64,000 nucleotides of DNA, taken from assembly GCA_051294375.1 (NCBI GenBank), contig CM119267.1:9325709-9389708 (forward strand), written 5' to 3'. The DNA is from Paraspadella gotoi (Eukaryota; Animalia; Chaetognatha). A program made the translations under genes and the position numbers. Below are positions 1-48,832 of this stretch, piece by piece. The notes below the pieces were generated by a model. It ran no database searches. It was not told the origin of the DNA and saw nothing but the letters and a program-made list of their open reading frames with translations. Numbering within the stretch: position 1 is the stretch's first letter; each line of letters begins with the position of its first letter.

Positions 1-709
1 CAACGAAAAATGGGGAGGGGAGAGGTTTATTTGTACAAAATGATAAATGGTTTAAAGGTTAAGCAAAGTTTTCAACTGCTTCAACTTTTTATTTATTATG
101 TAGTTACTATTAGATAATAAAGTGTTTCCTTTCGAAAAATACTTAATCGAATTTTTTTATTTTATGTTTTCATGATTCAAATTTCATAATTGATATGAAC
201 AGCGCGATTATTACGATTATTTTGACATTATCATCTCGTTGCTCCATACTGCGATTGCTCAGAATTTTGAAGTCTTATTTTAGTCGATATGGTCTCTGTA
301 CCTCAATGCAACCACCCACCCTAAAATTTTGGAGCTGTGGACGTTTTTTCTAATTATTATTTTAGTCCAGTTTATTGGTTAGTGGAAATCGAGGTAGATT
401 TCGTAGTTAACTTCGTAATTTTGCTACTTGTGGATGAATTTGATTTTAATCTTTCTCATTTCTTTATACTCTTATCAAACAGAAACCTGTGATAATCCCG
501 CACGTTCGTTGTGGATCTTCGAGATTTTGCTGTTTGATTGAATCTAAATTTTCAATCGTATTTTTAAACAATGTCAATGCGCATCGTTCGTACCAAAACT
601 ATACAAACTATTGTTCAATGATCTTTTCTACGCCAAAGATTGTCGCTTCTATCGAACAAAAAAAAAAAAAAAACAGCGACGAACAACATCTCATTTTTAA
701 AGCTAAACC

Positions 710-3289
710 ATGGCAGCAACTCCTCTCTGTGTCCTTCCCCCCACGTCACCCACCAAGAGCTTGCCTTCTCCTGTTCCCAAAATGAACCTCGACACCAACG
801 TCTCCTCCGCTGCCTCCTTGACCCAAAACTCCGGATCGCTCTCCTGTCTGGACGCGCCATCTTCGCCGGGTCGCGATTTCGCCTCGCCCCACCCAATGAA
901 TCTGGACACTCCCCACCTCTTTCTTACTTGCGGCATTTGCCGCGAATATTTTAAGGACGACCCAAAGCTTCTTTCGTGCCTCCACTCGTTCTGCGAGTCT
1001 TGCCTCCAATCTACGATGCTCGAGGGATCCCTGTCGCTGTCGTGCGCAACCTGTAAGGTTCAGTCCATTATACCGCCATCGGGCATTTCCGGTTTGCAGA
1101 CAAATTTTTACGCCGTTGATCTTCGGCGCATCCTCGACGAGGCCCGTCATTGCGCCGGGTGCGTCGTGGGCAGCGCTACTCCCGCATCTTACCGTTGCAC
1201 GGAATGCGGCCAGTCGCTTTGCAGCACCTGCTCTAAAACACATGCCTTGAAAGTTTCTGAGAATCAAGAGACTGGAGAATCGAAATCTCACAACGCCGTT
1301 GCTATTTGCAAATTGGCTATCGAGGAAGTCGTATCCAAGTTGGATGAAGAAACCGCGGTTTTTGCGACAAACTCAGATGCTCCGAGCGACATAGAAGACC
1401 CTCGGACGAATCGTCTCAAATGCCCGAGTCATAACTACGAAGAACTTTCCCTTTATTGCTCGACTTGCGAAACAGGAATATGTAGCGTGTGCGCTGACCG
1501 AGTGCACTTTGAACATGCGACAGAGACGATGAGTGACGCAATTGAGAAAGAGCGGGCAATGATGCGCGAAATGGCGAAGGCGGTGGACGCTCAGGTACCC
1601 CTCATCCGTGACACTATTGATCAAGTGAACCAGATGAAGAGTTCCCTCGCCGCCAATCTCTCCGAAGCCGAGAATAAGATTGAAGAAGCCTTCGACTCTG
1701 TTGTAAAATCCCTCAAAGAGAGACGCGACAAACTGCTGCGCGAAGCCACCGAAGCCCACGAGGCAAAGGAAAAAGTGCTTAAAGCTCAACGCGACGCTTT
1801 AGAAGCTAAATTGGCTCGCATGCTGAGTTGCTGCGAACTGACGATGTTCACACTTGAGAACGGATCCGACGCGGAAATTCTGTTGCTCCACAAACAGCTT
1901 GCCGATACCATGGACGAGTTGGCCTCTTTGGACGTCAATTTCACGCCAGAAGAGAATTACTTTCTCGGTTTTTCCCCAGGAGATTTGCCAAAGATGCGCC
2001 ATAAGTTGTCGAAAGCCGGCTGCGTCGTGAGTAATTCGTGCATCGCCCACGAGACAGTCGCAACTGGCGAGGGGCTCAAACAGTGCGTCCGCGGCAAGGT
2101 ATCGGTCGTCATCGTCACCACAAAGAACCATCAGGGCGAACTGGTTACTAGTGGGAACGCCCAATTTGAAACCTACCTCCAAAACTCCATGGGAAAAAGA
2201 ATAATCCCGGAAATATGCGACAACCAAAACGGAACTTATGATTTAGGCTATTTGGTCAATGAAGCCGGGAGCTATGTCTTTGTCATTAAACTCTACGGAC
2301 ACCATATTAAAGGTTCCCCCTTTAAACTACGAGCCTTATCCTCCGATCAACCAAAGCCCCCGGCGTCGCCCTCGCCTATTAAGTCGGCGGTGAGACAGCG
2401 GGCCATACGACGACCCCTGAGCGCTGCCTTCGTCGACCAACGAAAGAGCGACCCGGTAGAGGACGATCTCATCTTTCGCGTCGGCGTCAAGGGACGCAAC
2501 AAATCTGAGTTTACTAGCCCCCAGGGTCTTTGTGCCGCGCCCAACTCGCGGATTCTGGTTTCCGATGCCACTAATCAAAACGTGCAAGTGTTTACGAACT
2601 CTGGCGACTACAGACTAAAGTTTGGAATTCGCGGCCGTCAACCGGGTCAGTTCCAGCGACCCACGGACGTTGCTGTGACCCTTCAAGGGAATTTTTTAGT
2701 ATCAGATCACGACAACAAGTGGATAAGCATTCACGCCCCAGACGGAAAGTTCCTCAATCGGATCGGCGTCGGCAAGCTTCTCGGACCCAAGGGCATCGCC
2801 GTCGACTCCAATGGCCACGTCATTGTCGTCGATAACAAAGCCAACTCCATATTTGTCTTTCAGTCCAACGGGAAAATGCTATTAAAGTTCGGAAGTCGAG
2901 GAACTGCCGACGAGCAGCTGAACGGCCCTTATTTTGTCACCGTGAACGCACAGGACGAGATCGTAGTCTCGGATTTTCACAACCACCGCGTCAAAGTGTT
3001 CGACTCCCAAGGAGCCTTTCGCTTCGCTTTTGGATCACAGGGCGAAGGCAACGGTCAATTCAACGCCCCGACGGGCGTCGCGGTCGACGCCGTCGGCAAC
3101 ATCGTTGTGGCGGATTGGGGTAACAGCAGAATCCAATTATTCGACAAGACCGGGTCATTTTTGAGCTTCGTCAACACGGAGGGAGATCCTTTGTACGGAC
3201 CACAGGCTCTTTGTATGACCACGGACGGCCACATTGTCGTGGCCGATACAGGAAACCATTGCTTTAAAGTTTATCGATATTTACAATAG
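710..3289 (+). CDS. TRIM2/3: Tripartite motif TRIM2/TRIM3-like protein (RING, two B-boxes, coiled coil, filamin, NHL repeats), intronless
   Basis: 859-aa ORF with RING CGIC...LSCLHSFCESC...CATC, B-boxes, filamin repeat DNQNGTY...HIKGSPF and NHL repeats ending GNHCFKVYRYLQ, as in TRIM2/3. The start could be Met 710 or 782. Confidence 0.93.
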   Translation: MAATPLCVLPPTSPTKSLPSPVPKMNLDTNVSSAASLTQNSGSLSCLDAPSSPGRDFASPHPMNLDTPHLFLTCGICREYFKDDPKLLSCLHSFCESCLQSTMLEGSLSLSCATCKVQSIIPPSGISGLQTNFYAVDLRRILDEARHCAGCVVGSATPASYRCTECGQSLCSTCSKTHALKVSENQETGESKSHNAVAICKLAIEEVVSKLDEETAVFATNSDAPSDIEDPRTNRLKCPSHNYEELSLYCSTCETGICSVCADRVHFEHATETMSDAIEKERAMMREMAKAVDAQVPLIRDTIDQVNQMKSSLAANLSEAENKIEEAFDSVVKSLKERRDKLLREATEAHEAKEKVLKAQRDALEAKLARMLSCCELTMFTLENGSDAEILLLHKQLADTMDELASLDVNFTPEENYFLGFSPGDLPKMRHKLSKAGCVVSNSCIAHETVATGEGLKQCVRGKVSVVIVTTKNHQGELVTSGNAQFETYLQNSMGKRIIPEICDNQNGTYDLGYLVNEAGSYVFVIKLYGHHIKGSPFKLRALSSDQPKPPASPSPIKSAVRQRAIRRPLSAAFVDQRKSDPVEDDLIFRVGVKGRNKSEFTSPQGLCAAPNSRILVSDATNQNVQVFTNSGDYRLKFGIRGRQPGQFQRPTDVAVTLQGNFLVSDHDNKWISIHAPDGKFLNRIGVGKLLGPKGIAVDSNGHVIVVDNKANSIFVFQSNGKMLLKFGSRGTADEQLNGPYFVTVNAQDEIVVSDFHNHRVKVFDSQGAFRFAFGSQGEGNGQFNAPTGVAVDAVGNIVVADWGNSRIQLFDKTGSFLSFVNTEGDPLYGPQALCMTTDGHIVVADTGNHCFKVYRYLQ

Positions 3290-3573
3290 TCACCAAAGCA
3301 GAAATTCTTTCAATTTTCGTATTTCAGAAATAATTTGATTCTCGTTTACTAAGAATAACAGCCATTAGTTTTAACTGAAGATGTAACAGAATATTATATT
3401 AGTACTTAATGGGGTTTGATAACCGCTAGGTCTAAAATCTCTTGAGCGTTTAAGAATTTTTGTGTGAAATTTAGAAATTTTATTTTTAAACTTTAATTTT
3501 GACCCATTATGGCTTTAAGCTGGTTTGGAAACTTGCTACATACGGGGGGTTACCATAAAAAACCTAGGTTTAT

Positions 3574-3918
3574 TAGTTGCGCCGCGATTACTCGCGGATC
3601 AACTTTATAAGTCACTTTTCGGTCGGTCGTTCGGTCTGTCTGTCGTTCGGTATGGCTGTCGTTCGGTATGGCTGTCCCTCGGTATGTCCCACTTACGTTA
3701 AAAAATGCATATAATTGGTTGGTTGCTCATTTGTTAAGACGGGGGGAAAAAACCTCAAATCTAACTTATAAGGGACTGGAATCACCATTCTTGTGTTTGT
3801 TTTTCGTTTTACGTAAACTTGTATTTTTAATTAACGCATTGAAACTTACTGTCTAATTGTATTCATTTCTACCGACATAAGTATGGCATAAGTATGGCAC
3901 TTCATTCTGATGCGACTA
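3574..3918 (-). mobile_element. Non-autonomous Helentron-associated (HINE/DINE-1-like) element
   Basis: Terminal hairpin agttgcgccgcgattactcgcggatcaact, internal cggt/ctgt microsatellite (3620-3690), and a short inverted copy gatgcgacta at the other end. Confidence 0.55.
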
Positions 3919-4599
3919 AACCTAAAAACAATACTTGATTGAGCGATTTTGTTCAATTATCATTTTATTGACATTTCTTCGTATAGCTTTTTTTTCTCTT
4001 TAGTTTAATTTTTCGAGGTTAGATGTTTTTGTTTTTCTAGTCATTTAATTGGTGAATGTATTTTTATTTCCTTTCGGGATTTTCTGTCTCGACAATTACT
4101 GCTGGCTTTGTATTCTCGCTGTTTTTCGTATATTTTAGTTCTATTTACTGGCGTATTTTCCTGCCAACCCCCATCAAAAAATATACTTTCATACCAAATA
4201 TTTAAGTTAGAATAAACTGATTCTATGTTATATAATGGTTTGAAGTTACTACCCAAAAGATTGGAGTCTTTATCTCTCGACGGGGAATTTTTCGAGAATT
4301 TTTTTCTTTAAATTGGTTATCTGGTTTTGCTTTTTTTTCTGTTAGTCGATCTATGACGCATGGTCAGTGGCATTGTTATTAAATTTTATATTTGAATTGA
4401 GCTTACGTAATGCTAATGCCTATTTTGTTATTTGTATAAGTGATTAAAGAATGAATAACCTTATATAATATTATGCTATTTTTATTTCGAAAAACACAGG
4501 AAACTGAGCAGTGAGCAACCAGCTTGTAATGAAAATGCACCTCGCAGAATAATGCCAAAGGTCTTCCTGAGTTACAATTTTTTGTAGAAAAAACCAAAA

Positions 4600-6220
4600 A
4601 TGGCAACAATTTTGATCTCTAAATATTTGGGTCCATCGCATTTGTGTGGATTCGACAAGTACAAATACAGTTCGATTGACAATTCGCCTATTTCGGTATA
4701 CATCACTCACCCGTTTTGGAACCGTTGCGTTGAGGTACAACCAATTTAATTTTTCTGTCTCGATTAAACTTTTGTGACATGAAATCTTTTGAATGTATTT
4801 CTTAGCTATGTCCGCGCTGGTTGGCCCCCAATCTGATGACGTTTTTGGGCTTTTTGCTTTTGGTGGCGAATTTTGTCATCCTATCTTTTTACGATCCTCA
4901 TTTCTATGCGTCTTCCGGAGCCAAAGCTAACGCATACTCAATTCCGACCTGGGTTTGGTGGTTTTGTGCTGCCAGTCAGTTTCTCGCCCACACCCTCGAC
5001 GGATGTGACGGCAAACAGGTAAAACAAAACAAAAAGTTACTTCATTTTTTCCTAAAACAACTTACCAGCTTAAAGACGCCATAACTCACATTACCATTCA
5101 CCAGGCTCGCCGCACGGGATCGTCTACTCCATTGGGGGAGTTGTTTGACCACGGTTTGGACTCGTGGGCGGCGCTCTTTATGCCCATCGCACTTTACTCG
5201 GTTTTTGGTCGCGCGACCGACGTCTCCGTTTCGCCGCTTCGATTTTACTTCGTCGTCCTCGGCGTATTCCTCCAGTTTTTCATATCTCATTGGGAAAAGT
5301 TAGTTCGTTTAAAGATCGTTATATAATTTATATAATGTATTATTTATAAGATTTTGTGATTATTTGCTGGAAGGATATGGCATGAGATTGTAGTAAATAT
5401 TTTATACAATACGGACGTTTTTGTATTAATTTAGGTACAACACCGGTGTTCTTTTTCTACCTTGGGGCTACGACGCCAGTCAGATCGCCTTGACACTCGT
5501 CTATGTAGGAACGGCCTGGTTCGGGGTCGATACCTTCCTTCGCCCCACACCTGTTGGTGGTTTATCCTTCCCTCACTTGGCCGAGTTTTTTTTTCACTTT
5601 TCTGCTTTCGGCATGACCGTACCGATGAGTCTTTACAATCTGTACTGGTCTTGGCGACGCGGCCAAATTGAGAACTCCTTCTGGCGAGCTAACATTCCGT
5701 GGTTTCCCATTTTCTGGCTATTTTTTTTGACAACCGTCTGGGTCATTCACTCTCCTACAGATATACTCAATTCCCAGCCGAGGTAAAATTTTAACCGGCG
5801 TTCTACGAAGGCCAAACAATTGCAAGACAGATTTCGTCGCTTTATTCAGATTGGTTTACTGGATGGTGGGAACCGTGTTTTCGAACATCACTTGCCGATT
5901 GATCGTCGCCCAGATGTCGAGCACTGATGCTCCGTGGTTCAACACTATGCTTATTCCTCTCACTGTTTTGGTCGTCTCTATTTTTTTCCCCAATGGCAAG
6001 GTAAAAAGAGACATCAATTTTTTATTGGTTTAGTTATTTAATTAATTTTTTTTAACCTGCAATTATGCAGACTATGGAACCATACTACTTAATTGGATAC
6101 ACTGTCATCGCAACTTTGGCACATATTCACTACGGCGTCATGATTGTTGTGCAAATGAGTGATCACTTAAATATTCATACGTTTTCATTAAAAATTAGGG
6201 CAAAAGAGAAATCTAATTGA
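4600..6220 (+). CDS. SELENOI: Ethanolaminephosphotransferase 1 (EPT1/SELENOI, CDP-alcohol phosphotransferase), 6 exons
   Basis: Spliced reading gives GFDKYKYSSID..., APNLMTFLG, HTLDGCDGKQ|ARRTGSSTPLGELFDHGLDSW, SHWEK|YNTGVLFLPWGYDASQ and HIHYGV...FSL. Five GT-AG introns. Confidence 0.92.
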
Positions 6221-7247
6221 GATTACGTATTTTACAACTCATTTCATATTCTTGGGATCATCAACTGAGCGAGTTTAAATTAGCTTGGGAGGGATTACAT
6301 GTTATTACTGTCCTTTTTAAAAGTATTCAATTAATGTTTGTCATTATTACATCACACTAGATTTTATATTTCTTTTAAAAAGTATAAGTACTTAATATAT
6401 AAGTACAGTTGATCCTGTGTATTTTTACTGACATTTTTCATACCCTATAGTGTTAGTCATAATTTATTCCAATCTTCTCAGTTTTTACAATAATAACCTT
6501 ATCATTTCGTTTTTATTAGGTTTATAGCGAGTTTCCAATTATTTTTATGGATTATTCTGTATCTGTCATTGTCCTTTAATTTTGGTCAGTATTTTAATTA
6601 AGTTTACTAAAATATTTTATGGTGAAAACTTTTAACTGATGTCTGAAAATTTTGATTTTGTTTCTTTTACGTACAACTGAAGTAGGCCGCAATTAAATTC
6701 ATAAACAATGAATTTTATTAACCAACAATGAAATGAATTGTTAGAATTAAGTTTGTGTTTGCTTCGATACAGATGATCAATTTATTTATCTACATTATCT
6801 TTGTTAGATTCGATTAACACATTTTTTTATCAGAATGGGTTTCTAAAGACGTTTACCAAAGTAGCCCTTTTTAATTTCAAAAATGGTAAAAGCGGTAGTT
6901 TTATTTCAATTTTTTTCAGTTTGCGAGTTAATTGCTAGTATTATTTTTTCTTCGGTCAGCGTTTATATTTTTTTAACGTGATTTGAAGCATGACTATTTA
7001 AATCATTTTTATTACTTTTATTTATACTATACTAGTTGTCTGATTTTTTTTTTCAGATTCGTAAAACTTAAGAATGAGTGGTAAAATTTATCGCCCTACC
7101 AACATTAGGTTGGCAACCAACTTTCGATATTTTTTTCAGTAATAAATTGGAAATTTGTATTCCGTTTACTACTATTTTAATTTTTTCCTATTACCAAGTT
7201 TCAAGCGACATGCTTATTTATAAGTTTAAAAGTTCTGCTCGTTAGCT

Positions 7248-8342
7248 ATGGAGAAGTACGTAATTCTTGGGCGGATTGGGGAAGGAGCCCACGGGATAGT
7301 CTTCAAAGCGAAGAACATCGAAACCGGATCCCTCGTCGCTCTAAAAAAAGTAGCTTTGCGTCGTTTGGAAGATGGCATTCCTAACACGGCGTTGCGGGAG
7401 ATCAAGGCTCTTCAAGAAATTGCCGAAAACCCTTACATCGTCCACCTGCACGAGGTGTTTCCCCATGGTACGGGCTTCGTTCTCGCTTTCGACTACATGT
7501 TGTCCGATCTTTCCGAGGTCATACGCAATTCTGAGCGACCTCTTACCGAGGCACAGATTAAGTCGTACATGCTCATGCTTCTGAAAGGGGTAGCCTATTG
7601 CCACGAAATCGGCATCATGCACCGTGACCTGAAGCCGGCGAATTTGTTAATTTCTTCCACGGGCCACCTCAAGATCGCAGACTTCGGACTCGCCCGAGTA
7701 TTTTCCAACGACAAAGAGCGGCTCTACTCCCATCAGGTAGCCACGCGCTGGTACCGTTCCCCTGAACTTCTCTACGGCGCTCGCAAGTATGACGAGGGAG
7801 TCGATCTCTGGGCAATCGGCTGCATCTTTGCGGAACTTCTCAACAATTCTCCCCTTTTTCCCGGCGAGAATGACATCGAACAGTTGTGCTGCGTCCTGCG
7901 GATGCTCGGCACGCCCACCGAACAGACGTGGCCAGGGATGAACGAACTGCCCGATTACAACAAAATTACCTTTCCGGAAAATCCACCCGTTCCTTTTGAG
8001 GAGATACTCCCGGACGCCTCCCACGAGGCCATTGACCTATTGGAACGGTTTTTGGTCTACGCCTCCGAACGTCGCGTCTCGGCGAAAAAGGCGCTGCTTC
8101 ATCCCTATTTTTTCACGGAACCCCTACCGGCGCATCATTCGGATTTGCCCATCCCGCAGAGGAACCGCACTGAACGTCAACGGGCGGAACGTGGTTGCAG
8201 GCGATTTTATGCCGAATCCCTCGACTCTGTGCTTGTCAACCCGGAGCTTATTGCTCCACACGTGCCTTACGCGGCTACAAGCGCCAAGGATACGACGCGG
8301 CGTCCTCTCTACGACGAAGTAGAGGGAGAAAAGAAGAAATGA
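7248..8342 (+). CDS. CDK20: Cyclin-dependent kinase 20 (CCRK), intronless
   Basis: GEGAHGIV, IPNTALREIKALQE, HRDLKPANLL, DFGLARVF, YSHQVATRWYRSPELLYGA. Confidence 0.95.
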   Translation: MEKYVILGRIGEGAHGIVFKAKNIETGSLVALKKVALRRLEDGIPNTALREIKALQEIAENPYIVHLHEVFPHGTGFVLAFDYMLSDLSEVIRNSERPLTEAQIKSYMLMLLKGVAYCHEIGIMHRDLKPANLLISSTGHLKIADFGLARVFSNDKERLYSHQVATRWYRSPELLYGARKYDEGVDLWAIGCIFAELLNNSPLFPGENDIEQLCCVLRMLGTPTEQTWPGMNELPDYNKITFPENPPVPFEEILPDASHEAIDLLERFLVYASERRVSAKKALLHPYFFTEPLPAHHSDLPIPQRNRTERQRAERGCRRFYAESLDSVLVNPELIAPHVPYAATSAKDTTRRPLYDEVEGEKKK

Positions 8343-8526
8343 GCCAATTCAGCCTTCAGGGGCAACAGATGTCGCTCCACATTGACTAAATACCCAGTTT
8401 TATGCTCATGTATTTATATTCTAGTCTATTTATTCGGAAACCCAATCTGTGCTACCATGCCTTATGTTAATCACTTCACTTCGCTTGCATTCCTATATTT
8501 TTGTATTTTCAGTCTTAAAATTCGGG

Positions 8527-9202
8527 ATGGAAAGCTCGAACTCGACGATTGTAAGTCAGAAAGATGAAGAGACCGAAGTTTTGCCCAAGAAGCGCAGATC
8601 CGCCTTCGCGCCGGGCAGGAAATCATTGATCGAGGGCGTCGGTAAGGATCATGGGGTTGTGGGAAATAACGCGCTGAATACGGAGTGAGTCTTTTCTTCC
8701 TCCAGATGAAGACGAAAGTTCCAGCGATTCCAACGAAGAAGAAACCCGCGAGAAGTTGACCCTTCTTTACCAAGTCATTTCCGAACACAAAAAGGAGCAA
8801 GCCGACTGGCTCTCACTTATGGACGCGGAGAAGAGGCTCACAGACGAGAAAGTCACCTCCGAGGAAGACAACGTCGTCATTTTTAAAAAAGATGACGAAC
8901 CTGAAGGACTTCCGGTTAAATATTACAAGGCCATATTAAAGAGTAAAAATTTTCGAAGGGAGCACTGGGCGGCCTTGGAAACCACGCGGGCAGAACTAGC
9001 CGATCTTAAAAAAAACGTGGAAAATGATTTGATTCTTTTCGAAGATATTGTCGATAGATATGGAAACTATGTCGACCAACAGTGTGCTGAAGCTGCCCAT
9101 CGATTGGCTGGCGCGTACGACGCCGTTGCCGACGTTCTTACTGTTCAAAACGATTCCGGAATTAACATTGATTCGAATATCGATCCCGAGTGTCCTGCAT
9201 AG
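8527..9202 (+). CDS. Divergent coiled-coil protein resembling kinetochore Mis12-complex subunit DSN1, 2 exons (intron 8642-8705)
   Basis: The GT-AG intron joins two ORFs in frame. KKRRSAFAPGRKSL resembles the DSN1 RRxS...RKSL basic motif and EHKKEQADWLSLM resembles the DSN1 E-x-x-x-W motif, followed by helical heptads. Confidence 0.45.
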
Positions 9203-9487
9203 TGGCGTCGATATTTACAATAGTCACCAAAGGAAGAAAATCTTTCAATTTTCGTATTATTAGGTTTTCAATTATTAAGTTTTCAATTATTTTTATGGAT
9301 TATTCCTTTCGGTCAGGAATTTAAGTTTACTGAAATATTTGGTGAAAACTATTAACTGGTATCTGAAAATATTTAATTTTGTTTCTTTTACTTACAACTG
9401 TGCCTTTTTATTTTAGAACAAGCATCTTGTGTCAAATATCGTCAGCTTTTATAACTGTTTGTGCTGAATTACTAATAAACTAAAAAC

Positions 9488-12400
9488 ATGTCTTTTAATC
9501 TTCTGCCCCACGAAAGGAGCCAATTCGCTTCTAAAGAATATTGGGATGAATTTTTCAAAAAGCGTGGCGACGAAGCATTCGAATGGTACGGTAGTTTGTA
9601 CTATGTATTTTGTCGAGTTATGTCTCCTTCACATTTCCCCATTACTTTTCCCCAGGTACGGCGAATACCCTCAACTCTGTGGCATTCTCCATAAATACAT
9701 GAAGCCAACCGATGCCATTCTGAATATAGGGTGCGGGAACTCGCGCCTCTCCGCCGAGATTTACGATCTAGGGATCGAAAACATTGTCAACGTCGACATC
9801 AGCGAAGTTGTCGTCGCCAGGATGCGCGAGGTAAACAAGAATCGCGTCAATATGAAATGGGAGGTTGGCGATGCCACTCGTCTCGACGCCCACATCGACG
9901 AATCTTTCGGCGTCGTCGTAGACAAAGGGACCCTCGACGCGCTTTTCGCCGATGAGGAAGCCGCCACCCTTGAAGCGGTGGATCGAATGCTCGGCGAAGT
10001 CTCTCGACTGCTCAAGTTCGGCGGCCGATATATTTGCCTCACGCTGGCGCAAGACTTTATCGTTAATCGGTTGCTGAGCTGGTTTGAACGGGACGGCGGC
10101 TGGATCATCCGAGTTCACAGAGTATTCGACATGGATGCTGGTTAGCGATTCTCTGCTCTTCTTTTTTTTTGCGGGGGGCCTCTTTTTAAAAGTTTTTGCC
10201 GGTGGGCAGACGAAGCGTCTCACCACATGCCGCTCTTTGCCGTCGTATGCACCAAATTCAAAAAAGGAGGAAACTGCCTCACACTCGTCGAAATCTCGGT
10301 CTCCTCGACGAAGCTGGAACGCGTCGAGTCTGTCGAGGTGGCTAAAAATGCCATCGCGTCTGCTCAGGTGCGGAAGAGAGAAATTGGTACAACCGATTAT
10401 AAATATTATCCTGTGGCGGTATACTCACACCGCCTCACGTCCACCATCGTTCAGCCAAATCCATTGGCTCAGAGGGGGAACACACCATCCCAGGCGTAGT
10501 GTTCCATCCACAGTCCTAATGACTTCCCTCTGCGTTGGCAAAGCGAGACCGTCCTAGGGTAACCGCGCCAGTGACTGGAGGCGTCACTGAGGGTCGGAAG
10601 CCCCCAAAGCCAACAGTGAGATGCCCCATCCCAATGGGCATCACAGGCAACCCGGCTGTTGCCATAAGTGGTGAGCCCTACTATCGAACACGCAACCTTC
10701 TCAGGGTACGCTACGACAAACGCCTATGCCCTGCCGACTTTGGGTACGCTACAACAAATGCCTATGCCCCTGGGGTACGCTATGACAAACGCCTATGCCC
10801 CCACAACTCGCGCTCTCTCTCTCCCACTATGGTGACAGTTTTGTCAGACACTTCTCAGGCTTGAGGAACCTGAGTAATGTCTTGGTCCGGGGATCCTGTG
10901 GCGGTATACTCACACCGCCTCACGTCCACCATCGTTCAGCCAAATCCATTGGCTCAGAGGGGGAACACACCATCCCAGGCGTAGTGTTCCATCCACAGTC
11001 CTAACGACTTCCCTCTGCGTTGGCAAAGCGAGACCGTCCTAGGGTAACCGCGCCAGTGACTGGAGGCGTCACTGAGGGTCGGAAGCCCCCAAAGCCAATG
11101 GGCATCACAGGCAACCCGGCTGTTGCCATAATCCATTCATTTAATAAATAAGTTATCTTTCCTCTGACTTTGGACAGGCTTTGATGGTTTAAGGCCTTAC
11201 AAGATGATCACATAGCAGGTCCCTGCCAGCTTTTTATCAACTCTCTCTGTCTCGTTATTCACTCCAAAAGAATCTGGCTAGTGGCTATATAACAGAAATA
11301 GAGATAGAATTGTTATCACTCACTAATTACTACTTATATAAATTTGATGTCTTTTTAGGAATTTGCCGTCGTTCGTCATCGCCTATCGACGAAGGAACAC
11401 CGGGGTGACGAGATCCCGATATACCTCTACGATGAGGTCAATCTAACGTCCCCTCGATACGAGATATTCGTCGTCGATGTCGACGAAACAAAGATTGCGA
11501 TGAAGAAATCCTTTGCTGTCTTCATCGTTCCCGACGGGAGAGAAACCGAATGGCTCTTTAACTGCAAAGAGGTGACTGACTATATATTATATAATTTTGT
11601 TATGTCCGTCCGGTATTCATCAATAATAGGGTGGCCAATTCTTGCTCGGGACGAATCATATATATAATTCGTTTTAATCGAAAATGCTCCAATTATCAAG
11701 GGTCGAAGTCAGTTGGCGTCGTCTGCGGGATTCTCTCGACTTCTCGTCGTCTTGTTAAACCGAAACCACGTTTATGGCGACATGGAACAAGTCAAGTCTG
11801 ACTTGTCATCCAAGGTTTTAGAACTCGCACCTCCAAATAAGAGCAATGAAGAAGTGCCTTTTCTCAGGTTGTAACATTTTTCTGTCATTTTTATCGGACT
11901 TTATTCAACTATTGTTCAATATTTTTTTTTAGTATCGGTGATGATATTGGCAAGAGAACAGTCTTGCAGACTGGAGAGAGCGAATTGTCTGGACCGTTTG
12001 TTGTCGAAGAGGTGGAAGTAGCGGACGGTTCGATCTTAAGGTATGCTGCTGATTCTCGGTATGAAATACAACCGCTACACTACCGTAAAATCGATACTTT
12101 AACTAGAACGATATCTATGATTTGTCTTTTCTAAATTTCCAGGCGACTAATATTCTTAAGGAATCCAAATGTTATTCAGTCCGAGGTTAATGTTGTCACC
12201 GAAACCGTGACCAAGAAGAAAAAGAAAAAGACGATTTCAAAGACAAAGAAAGTCGTTTCGAACTCTTTATCTTTCGAATATTCTCGGTTTATGATGGCTT
12301 CCTTGTCGTTCCTCCCGCGATTCGAAGAACTCCTAAAGACAAAGATGGAGGTCAACAAAAAAAAAAACACACCCAAAAAAGTTTTGAAAATGAAATAAAA

Positions 12401-13211
12401 AATTACGACCAATTCCGATCCCGACTTATCTAAACCAATTATTTTCATGACGAAAAACATTTTTCAGACTTTGATCCTCGGCCTCGGCGGAGGTTGCCTC
12501 ACCTCTTTCTTACATCGTCGCTTTCCGAGAATGTACCTGGACGCCGTGGAGATCGACCCGGCGGTCGTCGACGTCGCCATCAAACACTTCGGCCTTCAGA
12601 CTGATGAACGTCTTCGTACTCACGTCGCCGACGGGTGAATAATGCAGGAATTCATCTTTTGCGATGCTTTTCATTTTTTTCCTTCGATATGTATGGTTTG
12701 TCTCGTTTTCAGGTTCCAGTTTTTAAACGACCTTGCAGAGGAAAAGCGCTACCACGTTATCGTACTCGACTGCGACAACAAAGACCTTTCATGTGGAATA
12801 AGTTGCCCTCCGCCTGGTAATTTGTTTTGGATTTTATCTTTTTTCCCCCCATTTTTTTTCTTATCTTCTCTTTGTTCATTTATTTTTCCGTTCTTTTTTC
12901 ACTGGGTAGAACTTATAACCCCCGATTGGCTCGACCTCGTCCTCTCACGACTTTACGAGGACGGTCTTTTCATGGTCAACCTGGTCTGCCGCGACGCCAA
13001 ACTGAGAAGTGAACTTATAAACAAACTCCAGAGCTTTTTTGGAAACCGTATGTGGATCAAAAAGGTGGAAGATCAGGTTAACGAAGTTTTGATCTGCTAC
13101 AAGTCGGCGGAGGGCGACGACCGCGATTACGACGATTACGACGCTGAAAGGAGAAAGTACCTTGACTCGCTTCCCACCGAAGAGCTCAAAGCTTTTATGA
13201 TGGGCCCTTGA
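9488..13211 (+). CDS. METTL13: eEF1A lysine and N-terminal methyltransferase METTL13, about 10 exons
   Basis: MSFNLLP...KEYWDEFF...FEWYGEY, ILNIGCGNSRLS, DKGTLDAL, FIVPDGRETEWLF, and C-terminal LILGLGGG...VEIDP...HVADG. GT-AG introns. Confidence 0.93.
10412..11130 (+). mobile_element. Miniature non-autonomous LTR retrotransposon (TRIM-type) in METTL13 intron 3
   Basis: Near-identical direct repeats at 10412-10666 and 10897-11130 (second has a 21-nt deletion), termini tgtggc...gccata, PBS-like TGGTGAGCCC 2 nt after the first LTR, and ATCC on both outer flanks. Confidence 0.8.
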
Positions 13212-22305: not shown

Positions 22306-25233
22306 ATGGCATATAATTATACCAATGCCACATTCGGGCCTTTAAACTTTCAAGCTCCTCAGGGGATTACTTACCCACCTCCAGTTAATCACTCGGTAGC
22401 TCAAACGTTTCAAACTGAGGATGTCTCAACAATTCCAGTTTTGAGTCATGCTGTCACCGTTTCGCCCGATCCTGCTAGAGTGTCTACATACAACTATAAC
22501 AATTGGTTTCAGACGAGTGCAGAACCTGCCTTTTCGGCTACTCGGTCAATGTCAATTGATCAAAGCAAAACTTATAATGATGCCCCGAGCACACCCTATG
22601 AATACACAGACCCTTGGGGAGAGTATGTTGCGCAAAATGATTCTTTTGTCTCCATTCAAGAAAAAGCTTTGAATGAAAACCAAGCAAACTTAAGTGAACA
22701 GCAATCTGTTAGCAGTGAATATAATGGAGATTACCGACAAAGTTTCTGGTGTGATCCTTGCAAGATCGATTTGATTTCTAAAAAACAATTCGATATGCAT
22801 ATTGCGGGCAAGAATCATGCCAAAAAGTTAAAGGCTTTGGAGGCAACCTCATTTGCTTTGGGACATTTCGTATCAGGCTTAGAAAAAAAAATTTTCACCT
22901 GCGAACTTTGTAAAATTACTATGAATGGGGCGGATGTTTTTCAGAATCATCTGAAGGGTCTAAAACACGAGAAAAAGCTACAGCAGCGTTCTCAAAATGA
23001 ACTAGGTCAAATAAATTATTATTGTGAGATTTGCTATATGGAACTTGGGGTTAGTCGATTAGCGTTTGACGCTCATCTTGACGGGAAATCGCATGCAAAA
23101 CGATTAGAGCTCGGAAAGATTCAGTATGAAATTCTCGATCCAGGGAAAATAGCCTATTATTGTGAAATCTGTCACTTACCGCACGGAGATCCAGGGTCCT
23201 ATCTGGAACATTTACGATCAGAACGTCATGCAAAAAGACTTCAATTGCAAGAGAAAGGCTACAATTTAAATCCACCCGGGTCTGGCGCAATAGCCACTCC
23301 TGGCTTGTATGAAAAAAATCTTTTTTGGTGCGATGTTTGCAAGGTGATGACTACAGGATTCCCGCAATATGATAATCATATTATATCTCAAAAACACCAA
23401 AATAAAATTAAGCTTGTTCTTGAAAAGTTGAATTTAGATGAAAAAAAGGCACAGAAACAGGAAGAAAAACTAGACAGTCACCGCTTACAAACTCTGGTTC
23501 CCATGTCATTTATTTTTGAAGAGGATAAGATCTTGAAAAAAAATTTGTTTAAAGACCCCGAGGAACTAGAAGAAACACCGAAAATTTTAGACGACTCGTT
23601 TAAAAAAAAGACGATAAGAGCTGCTAGTTCTCGAGTTAAAACTCAGTCTCATTTTAGTCGGAAACAGTTACAATCTGATTCTGATATTGGTCAGCATCAT
23701 TGTGATACTTGCCACGCAAACTTGTCTTCGGAAAAAATGTTAGAGGCTCATTTGAATGGGCAGCCGCATTTAAAAAAGGAAAAAATAAGATTATTAAGTG
23801 AAGAAAAGAAAAAGGAAGAATTGGGAAACGGCTATGAAAGTTTAGAAAGCAAAATTTTATCGACAGGGCCACGGGTTCTCGAAGGGGAAATCTTTTGTCC
23901 TCTTTGTAATTTGAAAATGATGCAAGTCCATGAAGCTGAAGCACATTTTGCTAGTCCCAAGCATAGAAACAAAATCAAACATGTGATTGTAGAGCACAAA
24001 AAAAATGACCAAACGAATGATTCAATTGGAATTCCATTCATTACGGGACATGATGTAAATCCTCAACAGAATTTGTATACATTATGTGAAACCCAGTTTA
24101 TATGCGACGTTTGCTTCATAAGTGCGTCCTCAGAGGCTCAGTTTGAGACGCATATTGTAGCTAGCAAGCATTTAAAAATGGTTATTAAAGTTGCCGCGTT
24201 TGCGGGTAATAACTTGATAGTTAAAATGGAGACAGATGAAGATATTCCTCCGGAACCAGTGACAGATCAGACCGTTTATAATCTGTTTTTCGAAATTTTG
24301 AAAAAATACGAAAATGATACAGAATTTCAGAAAGGCTTTACTAAAGTTATGAATAAGTTTAAGGAAGAAGATCGAGAGAAGAAAAGGCTTGAATATTCTC
24401 GGTACGGATTTTATGATGAAGAAGGATATTATATTCAAGAAGACTCTCACGGGGATAATCCCTATTCACTTTGGTATGAAGATAAGGGCCTTAATTTGAC
24501 GGGACCTGGATTACTCTCACTTCCTCCAGGTCTGCAACCTGTTCATCCATTTAGCCATCAAAATGTTTCTTTGGCAAATTTTTCACCTTTTCGTCGACCT
24601 TATGTTTCTCCTTTTAACATGTCTGCTACCCATATGCCCAGAAATAGATTTGAAGAAAGACATTATTTTATGCAAGGGTATATGCAAAACTCACCCGCGG
24701 ATGGTCCCAAACGCAAAAGAAAAAAACGAAATAACGAGCCCCCGAAATTTGATGCTGATCAGCAAGAGTATGATCCGTCCTTTTCAATCGGTTCCCATCG
24801 TTATCGAAATCCTGATCAAAAAAATGTCCCTAAACCTAAACCACAGCCAAAAATCAATGCCAGCCGGCTTGTAGAAAACAAATCGTCTAAAAACTCAAAT
24901 AACATGGAACATGTTTTGGAAGGAACTCTGGATTGGAGTCAATTTAAAGATCCTTCCTCTACAATCGCTTCTAATCGTCAAGATATCTCTATTTCAAAAC
25001 TCCAGCCAGTTAAAGAATGTCAAGAGATTGAAAACTCGAATGAAGTTGAATATGTTATGGATATGACTCTGAATTGGGATCAATTTAAAGATCCATCAAG
25101 TTCTTTTGGTAAATGGAAAAAAACTCTCCCTTCACCAAAATCCCCTGAGAAAGTGCTCATGAGCGAGAAGGGAACATCAAAAGCGAAAGAGAAGAATAAT
25201 TTTGAGAAGGTGAACACTAGCGAAAACTGTTGA
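22306..25233 (+). CDS. Multi U1/matrin-type (C2H2-Jaz) zinc-finger protein, ZNF385/ZFR-like fingers, intronless
   Basis: Eight CxxC...HxxGxxH-type fingers (e.g. WCDPCKIDL...HIAGKNHAKKL). ATG 22306 follows a T-tract and AG. Confidence 0.85.
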   Translation: MAYNYTNATFGPLNFQAPQGITYPPPVNHSVAQTFQTEDVSTIPVLSHAVTVSPDPARVSTYNYNNWFQTSAEPAFSATRSMSIDQSKTYNDAPSTPYEYTDPWGEYVAQNDSFVSIQEKALNENQANLSEQQSVSSEYNGDYRQSFWCDPCKIDLISKKQFDMHIAGKNHAKKLKALEATSFALGHFVSGLEKKIFTCELCKITMNGADVFQNHLKGLKHEKKLQQRSQNELGQINYYCEICYMELGVSRLAFDAHLDGKSHAKRLELGKIQYEILDPGKIAYYCEICHLPHGDPGSYLEHLRSERHAKRLQLQEKGYNLNPPGSGAIATPGLYEKNLFWCDVCKVMTTGFPQYDNHIISQKHQNKIKLVLEKLNLDEKKAQKQEEKLDSHRLQTLVPMSFIFEEDKILKKNLFKDPEELEETPKILDDSFKKKTIRAASSRVKTQSHFSRKQLQSDSDIGQHHCDTCHANLSSEKMLEAHLNGQPHLKKEKIRLLSEEKKKEELGNGYESLESKILSTGPRVLEGEIFCPLCNLKMMQVHEAEAHFASPKHRNKIKHVIVEHKKNDQTNDSIGIPFITGHDVNPQQNLYTLCETQFICDVCFISASSEAQFETHIVASKHLKMVIKVAAFAGNNLIVKMETDEDIPPEPVTDQTVYNLFFEILKKYENDTEFQKGFTKVMNKFKEEDREKKRLEYSRYGFYDEEGYYIQEDSHGDNPYSLWYEDKGLNLTGPGLLSLPPGLQPVHPFSHQNVSLANFSPFRRPYVSPFNMSATHMPRNRFEERHYFMQGYMQNSPADGPKRKRKKRNNEPPKFDADQQEYDPSFSIGSHRYRNPDQKNVPKPKPQPKINASRLVENKSSKNSNNMEHVLEGTLDWSQFKDPSSTIASNRQDISISKLQPVKECQEIENSNEVEYVMDMTLNWDQFKDPSSSFGKWKKTLPSPKSPEKVLMSEKGTSKAKEKNNFEKVNTSENC

Positions 25234-25541
25234 ATATGTAATGGACGAGTCTTTGGATTGGGAGAATTTTAAAGATTTCTCTACCGCATTTCATTCTTAA
25301 AAGTAAAAAATAATTTTTTTCCTACCGCTTATTTGTGTGTTGTAGTTAATTAGTCGAATTTTGATAAAATATAGGTTTTATTAGATATACGTATATACTA
25401 TATACATATCCATTTATTTCTCATTATCTTTTCAGTTTATTATACCTTGAGCTGTCAAAAAACGAAATTCATTTTTGTGCAACTGCTCTGTTATTTCTTG
25501 TTATCGACGTTCGACTAGGTTTGATCATTTAAAGTCCCAAA

Positions 25542-46732: not shown

Positions 46733-47150
46733 AAATGAGGACAACCTCAATTTTTTCTTATTTATAACTTATATTTTTTCGCTATTTTTTTCCCTTCCTC
46801 ATGGGCGTTGAGTTTACCAACGCTACTAGGAGATTTATTTTTTTCAAAGCGAATCTCTATACAGTTCGCTCGATTATTCCGGGATGTTAGATAGCTTTAG
46901 ATAATTTTTTTTTTCCAGAATACTTTCTCTTTCATATTGTTGATTTATCTTTTTACGATTTCTATAAGAAAAGCCAGTTTCGTTTTTTTGGGGGGTAGGG
47001 ACTTTTTTCCCCCGCATTTCTGGCGCCGAAACTTTGCTCTTTGTCCAAGTCGTAATTTTCTATCAATTCAAAAAAAAAAAAAATAAATAAAATACTAAAT
47101 CATTCGGTCGAAATTTTTTTGTTTTCAGTTTTTAAAAATTTATTACCGAG

Positions 47151-48832
47151 ATGCCTTTTATCGCCGAAGGCGAAGGTGCCGAGTCTCAAAGTGTTAAAGG
47201 CGATGTTGATGGAGAAGTCGCCGGCCCGCGTGACGATGAAGCGACAGACCCGGACGCCTGGGATCAGGCATCTGACGGCCATTTCCGCTCCAACGACGAC
47301 GATTTTATTACCGGTCCCGGAAGGCAGTTTCTTGACGAGAGGACGAGGTCTCAACTTTCCCGTCCTCAAATTACCATACAGGTGTCTGATCAAGAGGTGT
47401 TTTGATCAAGAGGTGTTTTGACCCTTGTTTCGACGTTTGTCTCGTCTTACAGGAAATACCTCTTCAATGCGATCGGCGCGCCTTCCGTCAAACCTGCGAA
47501 GGCTTTGGCAGAGTTCTCGATTTCAAAATGATGAATAGTCACAATGAGAAATTTCAACACGCCTTTGTCACCTATGATACCATGGACTCGGCCCACGCTG
47601 CTGCCAAGGAATTGCGAATGGTCGTGCTGGGAGAAACCCCCCTGAAAGTCGGCATCCCGAAGACTAAGGAGCAGAGAGATAAAGAGCGAGAAGAAAGGCG
47701 AAAGGAAAACGAGCTTTACCGGGATTGTGGCTTCTCGAACGTGTTGGACGCCCCCAGCGCCAACGTTAAGAGATGCGATCACTGCGGACGCGACGAGGCC
47801 AACTTGAAAAGGTTACCCATAAGGTATTGCACCGGATGCTGGGTGGCCGCTTATTGCTCCGTCGAGTGTCAGAGGGAGGAGTTTTCCAAGCACAAGCGAA
47901 CCTGCACGGCCATGGTTGAAAAAAGGAAGAAAAAGAAATTGGCGAAGAAAGCGGCGGCTGCGGCCCAAGAGTCAGAGGCGGCGGCTGCTGCTGGTGCTTT
48001 CGATAAAGTGAATAAGCCAGTGACTTCTGAGGCGAAACCTTTAGAAACTCCAGACGTTTCTAAGTTGTTCATTTCGGAGGCGAAAATCGTCTTCAAGGAT
48101 CTGCTTGCCAACGAAGTTAATTTTGGCATGATTTTGTCCGTGGTCGACCCGGGAGACTTTTGCGTGGCACCCGACGATGACGATCCTCTGGCTTACCAAC
48201 TTCTCAATTCCTACTTGGCAGCTTTCATGGAGCAGCAGCAAATCACCCAGTTATTGGAGAATCCAAAAGTTGGGGACGCGGTGGTGGCAAAGATCCCGAG
48301 GGTGGACAACGACGAAGACGAAGATTCTTACCAACGCGCCGTCGTGGTGCATGTCTACGAATCTCCGACGGAGCCCGAACCGGCGGCCCTGTTAGAGTTG
48401 TGGTTTTGCGACGCCGGAGTAGCGGCGAGCGACGTTCCCGTCTCTTCCGTCGTTTCTTTGTCTGACTTTCGCCACTTTCTGCGTCGCAACAACGTCGACG
48501 TCTCTTCGGCGACCCTGCCCGCTCGTTTGATTCGCTGCCATCTTTGCGCCATTTGTCCCGACGACGGAGAGTCGCGTCCCATCGTGCCCGGACGCGAAGG
48601 GCTGTTCGAAGAGGACCAAGAAGACCACCACGAAGACCCTGATGCGACTCCCGAATGGGACGAAGTCGCCGTCGCCTTTTTGAAGAAGTTGATCTTCACG
48701 AGAATGGAGGTTCGGGTGATCAGCAAGGATGAAAACGTCGTACCCAAGTTCGGAGTCACGATGAGTAAGAAGGAAATTGGAGTCGGAGATTCTCTTGTCG
48801 ACGTCGGGTTGGCCGATTTTGACAACCATTGA
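47151..48832 (+). CDS. RRM + MYND + extended Tudor protein (Vreteno/Veneno-like architecture), 2 exons
   Basis: RRM across intron 47382-47452 (HAFVTY...LKVG), MYND CDHC...CTGC..AAYCSVECQ...HKRTC, and extended Tudor VVDPGDFCV...PKVGDAVVAK...YQRAVV...FCDAG...LPARLIRCHL...LVDVGLA. Confidence 0.8.

Follow-up and report, generated by a model that had tools for sequence, protein, structure and literature searches.

A fused relic of TRIM2/3 and EPT1-family sequence in the 3' UTR of a DSN1-like gene within a chaetognath operon

Gene content and mRNA ends of the locus

The window, that is, the whole 64,000-nucleotide stretch of Paraspadella gotoi DNA analysed here (GCA_051294375.1, contig CM119267.1, positions 9,325,709 to 9,389,708 of the forward strand), carries near its left end five genes, whose present order is TRIM2/3 (with source A), EPT1 family (with source B), CDK20, DSN1-like, the relic A'B' and METTL13. 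The genes, and the splice site that closes the DSN1-like mRNA, are the following.

710..3289, plus strand: TRIM2/3 gene, intronless, with RING, B-box, filamin and NHL
4600..6220, plus strand: EPT1/CEPT1-family CDP-alcohol phosphatidyltransferase gene, 5 introns; mRNA about 4500-7056
7248..8342, plus strand: CDK20 gene, intronless; mRNA about 7057-8512
8527..9202, plus strand: DSN1-like gene, with a single intron (about 8641-8704); its mRNA spans 8513 to about 9416 and bears a spliced leader and poly(A)
9401..9416, plus strand: pyrimidine tract and AG, putative METTL13 trans-splice acceptor and DSN1-like poly(A) site, from the poly(A) behind 9418 and the leader overlap
9488..13211, plus strand: METTL13-like methyltransferase gene, the next gene of the operon

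The EPT1/CEPT1-family gene is labelled at the level of the family, not of the paralogue. Pfam-matched open reading frames are all located on the plus strand, none of the 62 minus-strand frames of at least 100 amino acids being matched. CDK20 and several other genes of the window are intronless like TRIM2/3, suggesting intron loss in these genes; in the close relative P0134, TRIM2/3 includes an in-frame insert of 37 residues that resembles a read-through intron.

At least 90% of the sampled words were present in nine of the 11 sequencing runs listed, which come from three studies. Contigs of four of these nine runs were compared with the window, X5 and X6 being near-identical and counted once. 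X5, X6 and X9 were read as RNA because nine GT-AG introns are skipped and X9 shows a leader and poly(A). One spliced contig of 10,772 bases (X5/X6) covers all five genes, a contig not being equal to a single molecule. In X9, the 22 extra letters before 8513 are the 3' part of the chaetognath spliced leader SL2.0, as given in Table 3 of PMC2481426, and 25 unaligned contig letters precede 4500. Leaders are probably also present at 7057 and 9417, where overlay of the last ten letters of the leader places the expected contig starts at 7047 and 9407; both fit, and the predicted METTL13 start at 9407 agrees with 178 covered bases. Poly(A) was read behind 9418 in one run (X9), and the X9 contigs ending at 4503, 7055 and 8511, with unaligned tails of 16, 17 and 0 letters, adjoin the acceptors 4499, 7056 and 8512. 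Four successive mRNA 3' ends meet the trans-splice acceptor of the next gene in this run (4499, 7056, 8512 and 9416). No hexamer of the AATAAA type is found within 80 bases of three of the four gene ends. The locus appears to be an operon devoid of intercistronic DNA, of the chaetognath spliced-leader type.

The 3' UTR of the EPT1-family gene reaches about 840 bases, against 170 and 214 for its neighbours, and the longest one about 1210. Three consecutive acceptor-like pyrimidine-AG motifs can be recognized by eye in the EPT1-family 3' UTR (6833, 6919 and 7056), with leader support at 7056 alone; those at 6833 and 6919 could be due to chance or be remnants of lost genes. In the 3' UTR of TRIM2/3, the X9 contigs diverge at about 3367, shortly after an AATAAC hexamer at 3354 (region 3338-3367), which hints at a proximal poly(A) site, located outside the segment whose duplication is described below.

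The fourth gene is likely a kinetochore (DSN1-like) gene. An Atlas feature match returned 'DSN1 homolog' with a score of 0.90 and 195 shared features, at low recognition, and an RRS/RKS motif of the protein may resemble that of DSN1. It is short (about 200 amino acids) and divergent; three unnamed relatives were found at 26-31%, and Pfam MIS13 matched neither the protein nor these three. Such a protein is of interest because chaetognaths are reported to lack CENP-A and CENP-T across the phylum (PMC12460157).

A fused copy behind the DSN1-like stop codon

The region between the DSN1-like stop codon and the METTL13 acceptor is occupied by a relic (9208-9400) made of two pieces, each of which recurs upstream in the window.

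3274..3323, plus strand: source A, TRIM2/3 end and proximal 3' UTR
6505..6679, plus strand: source B, internal part of the EPT1-family 3' UTR (stop 6218-6220; mRNA end about 7055)
9208..9258, plus strand: relic piece A', covering the final TRIM2/3 codons (YRYLQ*), the stop and the 34 bases of 3' UTR that follow it, from self-BLASTN, shuffles and alignment
9250..9400, plus strand: relic piece B', which copies 6505-6679 in diverged form and with small deletions, from self-BLASTN, shuffles, alignment and pair-HMM
9250..9258, plus strand: A/B fusion junction, microhomology with 6 exact bases and 9 of 10 bases common to the sources

Self-BLASTN of the window, the comparison proposed in an earlier note on this DNA, recovered both copies on the plus strand and colinear with their sources: 3274-3323 recurs at 9208-9258 (94%, E 9e-14) and 6505-6679 at 9250-9400 (E 2e-22). 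Local scores are 85 for piece A and 126 for piece B, with 200 dinucleotide shuffles each peaking at 31 and 39. Global alignment of piece A gives 48 matches, 2 mismatches and 1 gap, and that of piece B (6515-6679 versus 9259-9400) gives 124 matches and 13 mismatches over 137 aligned columns, about 90% of the aligned bases matching, with 28 bases missing from the copy and 5 added relative to the source. Overall, 15 substitutions and several indels set the relic apart from its sources, which corresponds to a divergence of 4% for piece A, 9.5% for piece B and 8% for both combined. The second source had been described in the earlier note as spacer between EPT1 and CDK20; the copying is borne out, with a start refined to about 6505, whereas the label has to be abandoned, since the segment is located inside the transcribed EPT1-family 3' UTR (X9 contig 6069-7055). 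Source A encodes YRYLQ*, which is the C-terminus of human TRIM2; because this terminus is conserved, A is the source and A' the copy, a direction settled for piece A alone, B and B' being unpolarised.

Both sources are separated by 3.18 kb and stand in the same order and orientation as in the relic. At the point of fusion, the shared TTTCGT already pointed out is exact in both sources and extends to 9 of 10 common bases; among 200,000 random position pairs drawn from the two UTRs, at least 6 exact bases arise by chance in 0.5% of cases and at least 9 of 10 bases in 0.17%. Piece A' begins 5 bases past the DSN1-like stop, and piece B' stops 16 bases short of the METTL13 acceptor. Homology was detected by pair-HMM tests neither left of 9208 nor right of 9400, nor into the METTL13 acceptor or 5' UTR (p 0.5-0.99).

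The relic represents 193 of the 214 bases of the DSN1-like 3' UTR, and transcription passes through it, as X9 displays the leader before 8513 and poly(A) behind 9418. Thus, the proposal that the DSN1-like gene uses recycled 3' sequence is upheld. The TRIM codons are in frame past the DSN1-like stop, for which the chance is 1 in 3, and the relatives of the DSN1-like protein terminate at a similar place; a DSN1-TRIM fusion protein was rejected on these grounds.

Misassembly, or fragments of a dispersed repeat, had been named in the earlier note as what might lie behind such a relic. Both origins are very unlikely, and we give them hardly any credence. The relic is regarded as real DNA because contigs of other samples are identical there and no pile-up is seen: the X5/X6 contig equals 8705-9584 and the X9 contig equals 8705-9418, each with 0 differences and with the relic included. 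A DNA contig covers 3687-10437, also with 0 differences, although this best DNA run is possibly the window's own source, which speaks for an artefact to that extent. The substitutions and indels that separate the relic from its sources argue against one, and so does the summed DNA contig depth, a rough measure, which is 108 for the bin with A, 134 for that with B and 125 for that with the relic, near the 103-111 of long contigs, true repeats (near 3570-3745 and 10400-11200) reaching 90,000-700,000. The relic segments have two copies within the window (self-BLASTN and masked self-search). No repeat-like contig pile-up was present on the relic at 88% likeness, a threshold under which a more diverged copy elsewhere would go unseen, and this is the point that a repeat origin retains.

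Histories compatible with the relic

The reading that we tentatively prefer, giving it a little less than an even chance, is that the relic is what remains of a tandem duplicate extending from the TRIM2/3 end to just beyond the DSN1-like stop; every gene of the second copy would have been lost, and gene order left unchanged. About 5.9 kb (3274 to about 9207) would first have been duplicated. A 3.2 kb deletion between microhomologies would then have dropped the spare EPT1-family gene and joined A' to B', and a second deletion would have taken the spare CDK20 and DSN1-like copies, halting before the METTL13 acceptor. Each of these steps is a reconstruction, the observed elements being the copies, the junction, transcription through the relic, the leader and the poly(A). 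Several features argue for this whole-copy collapse. Both pieces keep the order and strand of their sources and break off sharply on the outside, and the microhomology at their junction has a chance rate of 0.2-0.5%. Divergence is of comparable magnitude in A and B (4% and 9.5%). The relic is the sole one of its kind in the masked window, without a mirror relic in 1-709, which is what collapse of one entire copy would predict. In RNA contigs, a leader precedes 8513 and poly(A) follows 9418, X9 having 0 differences over 8705-9418, and three of the four gene ends are devoid of an AATAAA-type hexamer within 80 bases. Besides, PMC12460157 reports a chaetognath genome in which tandem duplication is prevalent. 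Against the collapse, the spare CDK20 and DSN1-like copies, whose duplication is only postulated, left no trace, and the native DSN1-like 3' UTR must be gone save for at most 21 bases. A mirror relic may also lie beyond the 709 bases upstream of TRIM2/3.

The earlier note had interpreted the relic as duplication-random loss with a change in gene order. Its duplication-then-deletion origin is supported by the colinear same-strand pieces and the junction microhomology, whereas the change in gene order does not follow, since loss of all genes from the second copy gives the same relic more simply, and the reciprocal relic upstream of TRIM2/3 was not found within 709 bases. Under such reordering, an ancestral CDK20-DSN1-TRIM-EPT1-METTL13 block would have been duplicated, copy 1 losing CDK20 and DSN1 and copy 2 losing TRIM and EPT1 (two deletions), so that B' would be the native EPT1 3' end adjoining the METTL13 acceptor. 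In tandem-duplication histories, CDK20 and DSN1 sit either at the end of copy 1, which gives whole-copy collapse, or at the start of copy 2, which gives reordering. Every aligned base of 9208-9400 fits this history equally well, and the identified genes of the window are all on one strand. Two softer points go in the same direction: homology breaks off 16 bases short of the METTL13 acceptor, as if the other copy missed the acceptor alone, and the EPT1-family 3' UTR, long in comparison with those of its neighbours, looks like a composite. The latter point is countered by the EPT1 contig of a relative, which also has a long 3' end of about 690 bases. Reordering further requires four events, compared with three for whole-copy collapse, a one-event margin that is a weak argument of parsimony. 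Relics would be expected in both copies, but 1-709 holds no remnant of CDK20, DSN1 or 6680-7250: none of 11 region pairs tested for mirror relics rose above shuffles, and the masked self-search returned no other relic of this kind in the window. Homology also fails to continue into the METTL13 acceptor or 5' UTR. Altogether, reordering is a possible history, if an unlikely one. A branch-point argument for either history was dropped, as no consistent motif emerged from nine introns and four acceptors.

A wider proposal goes with reordering, namely that the relic records a nuclear duplication-random-loss event within an animal operon, where acceptor-to-stop cassettes let chaetognaths permute operon genes cheaply with strand kept. 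Permutation would be nearly free because each gene would be a portable cassette running from acceptor to stop, its 3' end being set by the next acceptor. This proposal is unlikely as it stands. If true, it would connect operon building with the tandem-duplication burst of chaetognaths, and operon permutation would be recorded genome-wide in fused 3' UTR scars.

Whole-copy collapse, the preferred reading, calls on a property of such operons. As mRNAs here end at the acceptor of the next gene, any sequence from a stop codon to that acceptor would become 3' UTR; no new poly(A) signal would then be needed and the scar would be tolerated. Acceptor-defined 3' ends would in this way make UTR swaps cheap, and a live gene can exchange its 3' UTR for scrap where the next acceptor sets the mRNA end.

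The relic may also have formed without duplication of a whole block. In a templated insertion, a break in the DSN1-like 3' UTR would have been patched from two nearby templates by a microhomology-guided template switch; in a proximal copy, the segment from the TRIM2/3 end to EPT1 alone would have been copied 2.5 kb downstream, then collapsed. One or two events suffice for these routes, which account for the missing CDK20 and DSN1 relics, and templated insertion has a precedent in human tumours, in which local n-jumps and templated-insertion bridges leaving a gap are described (PMC7025897). By our estimate, two free switches would give the same orientation and a colinear order about 1 time in 8, whereas tandem duplication yields both automatically. 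A reverse-transcribed version is disfavoured by flanks holding neither a poly(A) tract nor a target-site duplication, marks that 8% divergence could have erased. Taken together, these routes are quite unlikely.

Another scheme supposes that A and B were formerly contiguous, a third and older A-like copy standing just upstream of B, with more than one round of duplication. A match of 13 of 15 bases at 6484-6498 lies at a plausible position for it, and 0 of 3000 spacer draws reach 13 of 15 ungapped (p=0.006 by local score). This match was found post hoc, and an anchored pair-HMM assigns it -4.3 to +0.5 bits (p about 0.02), compared with 13-49 bits for true copies. As its pair-HMM score falls far under that of true copies, the candidate was rejected, and the scheme is highly improbable; 6484-6498 is better read as imperfect homology that may have favoured deletion, or as chance. 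To all readings other than collapse, reordering and templated or proximal copying, we jointly assign a small share of probability.

Gene order in other organisms was approached through metagenome loci and contigs of relatives. Among 80 CDK-type loci obtained from a CDK20 alignment scan, 0 have TRIM, EPT1, DSN1-like or METTL13 matches, and none matches the relic. The best full-length CDK20 matches are 65-79% identical. Contigs of two other organisms aligned at 80% carry one gene each. No credible contig is shared between relatives of CDK20 and those of TRIM, DSN1-like or METTL13, the one candidate, of length 1397, being too short for both genes. A HiFi assembly of the chaetognath Spadella cephaloptera, with an N50 of 170 kb, is described in bioRxiv 10.1101/2025.01.31.635879.

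Relation to known systems and other features of the window

The relic is a genuine, modest further instance of a known process, and as a scar it is of an ordinary type. In animal mitogenomes, tandem duplication-random loss (TDRL) likewise leaves same-strand colinear residues in a non-coding gap after the loss of redundant genes (PMC5122201). In contrast, the relic described here is nuclear and operonic, and its residue is a 3' UTR, not a pseudogene. The hallmark of TDRL is reciprocal loss with a changed order, whereas what the relic offers is same-strand, colinear remnants; it is therefore not classed as TDRL. The nuclear gene relics of yeast presented in PMC4937564 are likewise short degenerate remnants marking a past duplication or rearrangement. 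The remnant here comprises five TRIM codons, a stop and UTR; unlike those of yeast, it combines sequence from two loci and is transcribed with an unrelated live gene, for which it serves as 3' UTR.

The junction has short homology at both breakpoints, kept once, as in microhomology-mediated deletion. Such deletions and the local templated insertions of PMC7025897 likewise display short shared junction sequences and templates kilobases apart; the relic differs in being germline, apparently fixed in the samples compared and about 8% diverged, and a single junction does not reveal the repair route.

Spliced-leader operons devoid of intercistronic DNA are reported in Ciona (PMC1488885), which also cites the SL1-type operons of C. 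elegans, and the RPS14-PCNA operon of Spadella cephaloptera has 3 bases from poly(A) site to acceptor (PMC2481426). In all these operons, as in the present one, the poly(A) site coincides with the acceptor of the gene downstream, and AATAAA is mostly lacking. The present locus differs by its four successive boundaries and its two long 3' UTRs (about 840 and about 1210 bases). The operon calls in PMC12460157 use a 250-bp gene-distance rule, which could, given these two long 3' UTRs, miss such links, depending on the annotation of gene ends. The same source reports for a chaetognath genome a tandem-duplication burst, nearly half of the genes trans-spliced and 18% of them in operons, so a local duplication scar is to be expected in such a genome.

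A search of titles and abstract openings in the open-licence literature returned no account of such a fused relic from an animal operon, a weak indication that none has been described. As it stands, the relic is one well-preserved duplication scar. If gene order proved to have changed relative to an outgroup, it would provide a direct nuclear and operonic example of a mechanism argued mostly from mitochondrial genomes, together with a testable route for operon reshuffling.

Elsewhere in the window, every identified gene from 710 to 58600 is on the plus strand (17 Pfam-matched, plus the EPT1-family and DSN1-like genes), and a tRNA-Cys stands on the same strand at 35281-35354. This same-strand run exceeds the nine-gene operon quoted in PMC12460157, co-transcription having been checked within 1-11500. 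Two very high-copy repeats are located in the 3' UTR of TRIM2/3 (3573-3745) and in an intron of METTL13 (10400-11200), the latter being partly duplicated (10408-10667 versus 10893-11131). Two adjoining MYND-finger genes (45839-48832), between which the masked self-search gave no DNA-level match, are possibly an old tandem pair. At the end of a zinc-finger gene, 24890-25276 contains three diverged copies of a unit of about 70 bases, the last of which spans the stop codon.
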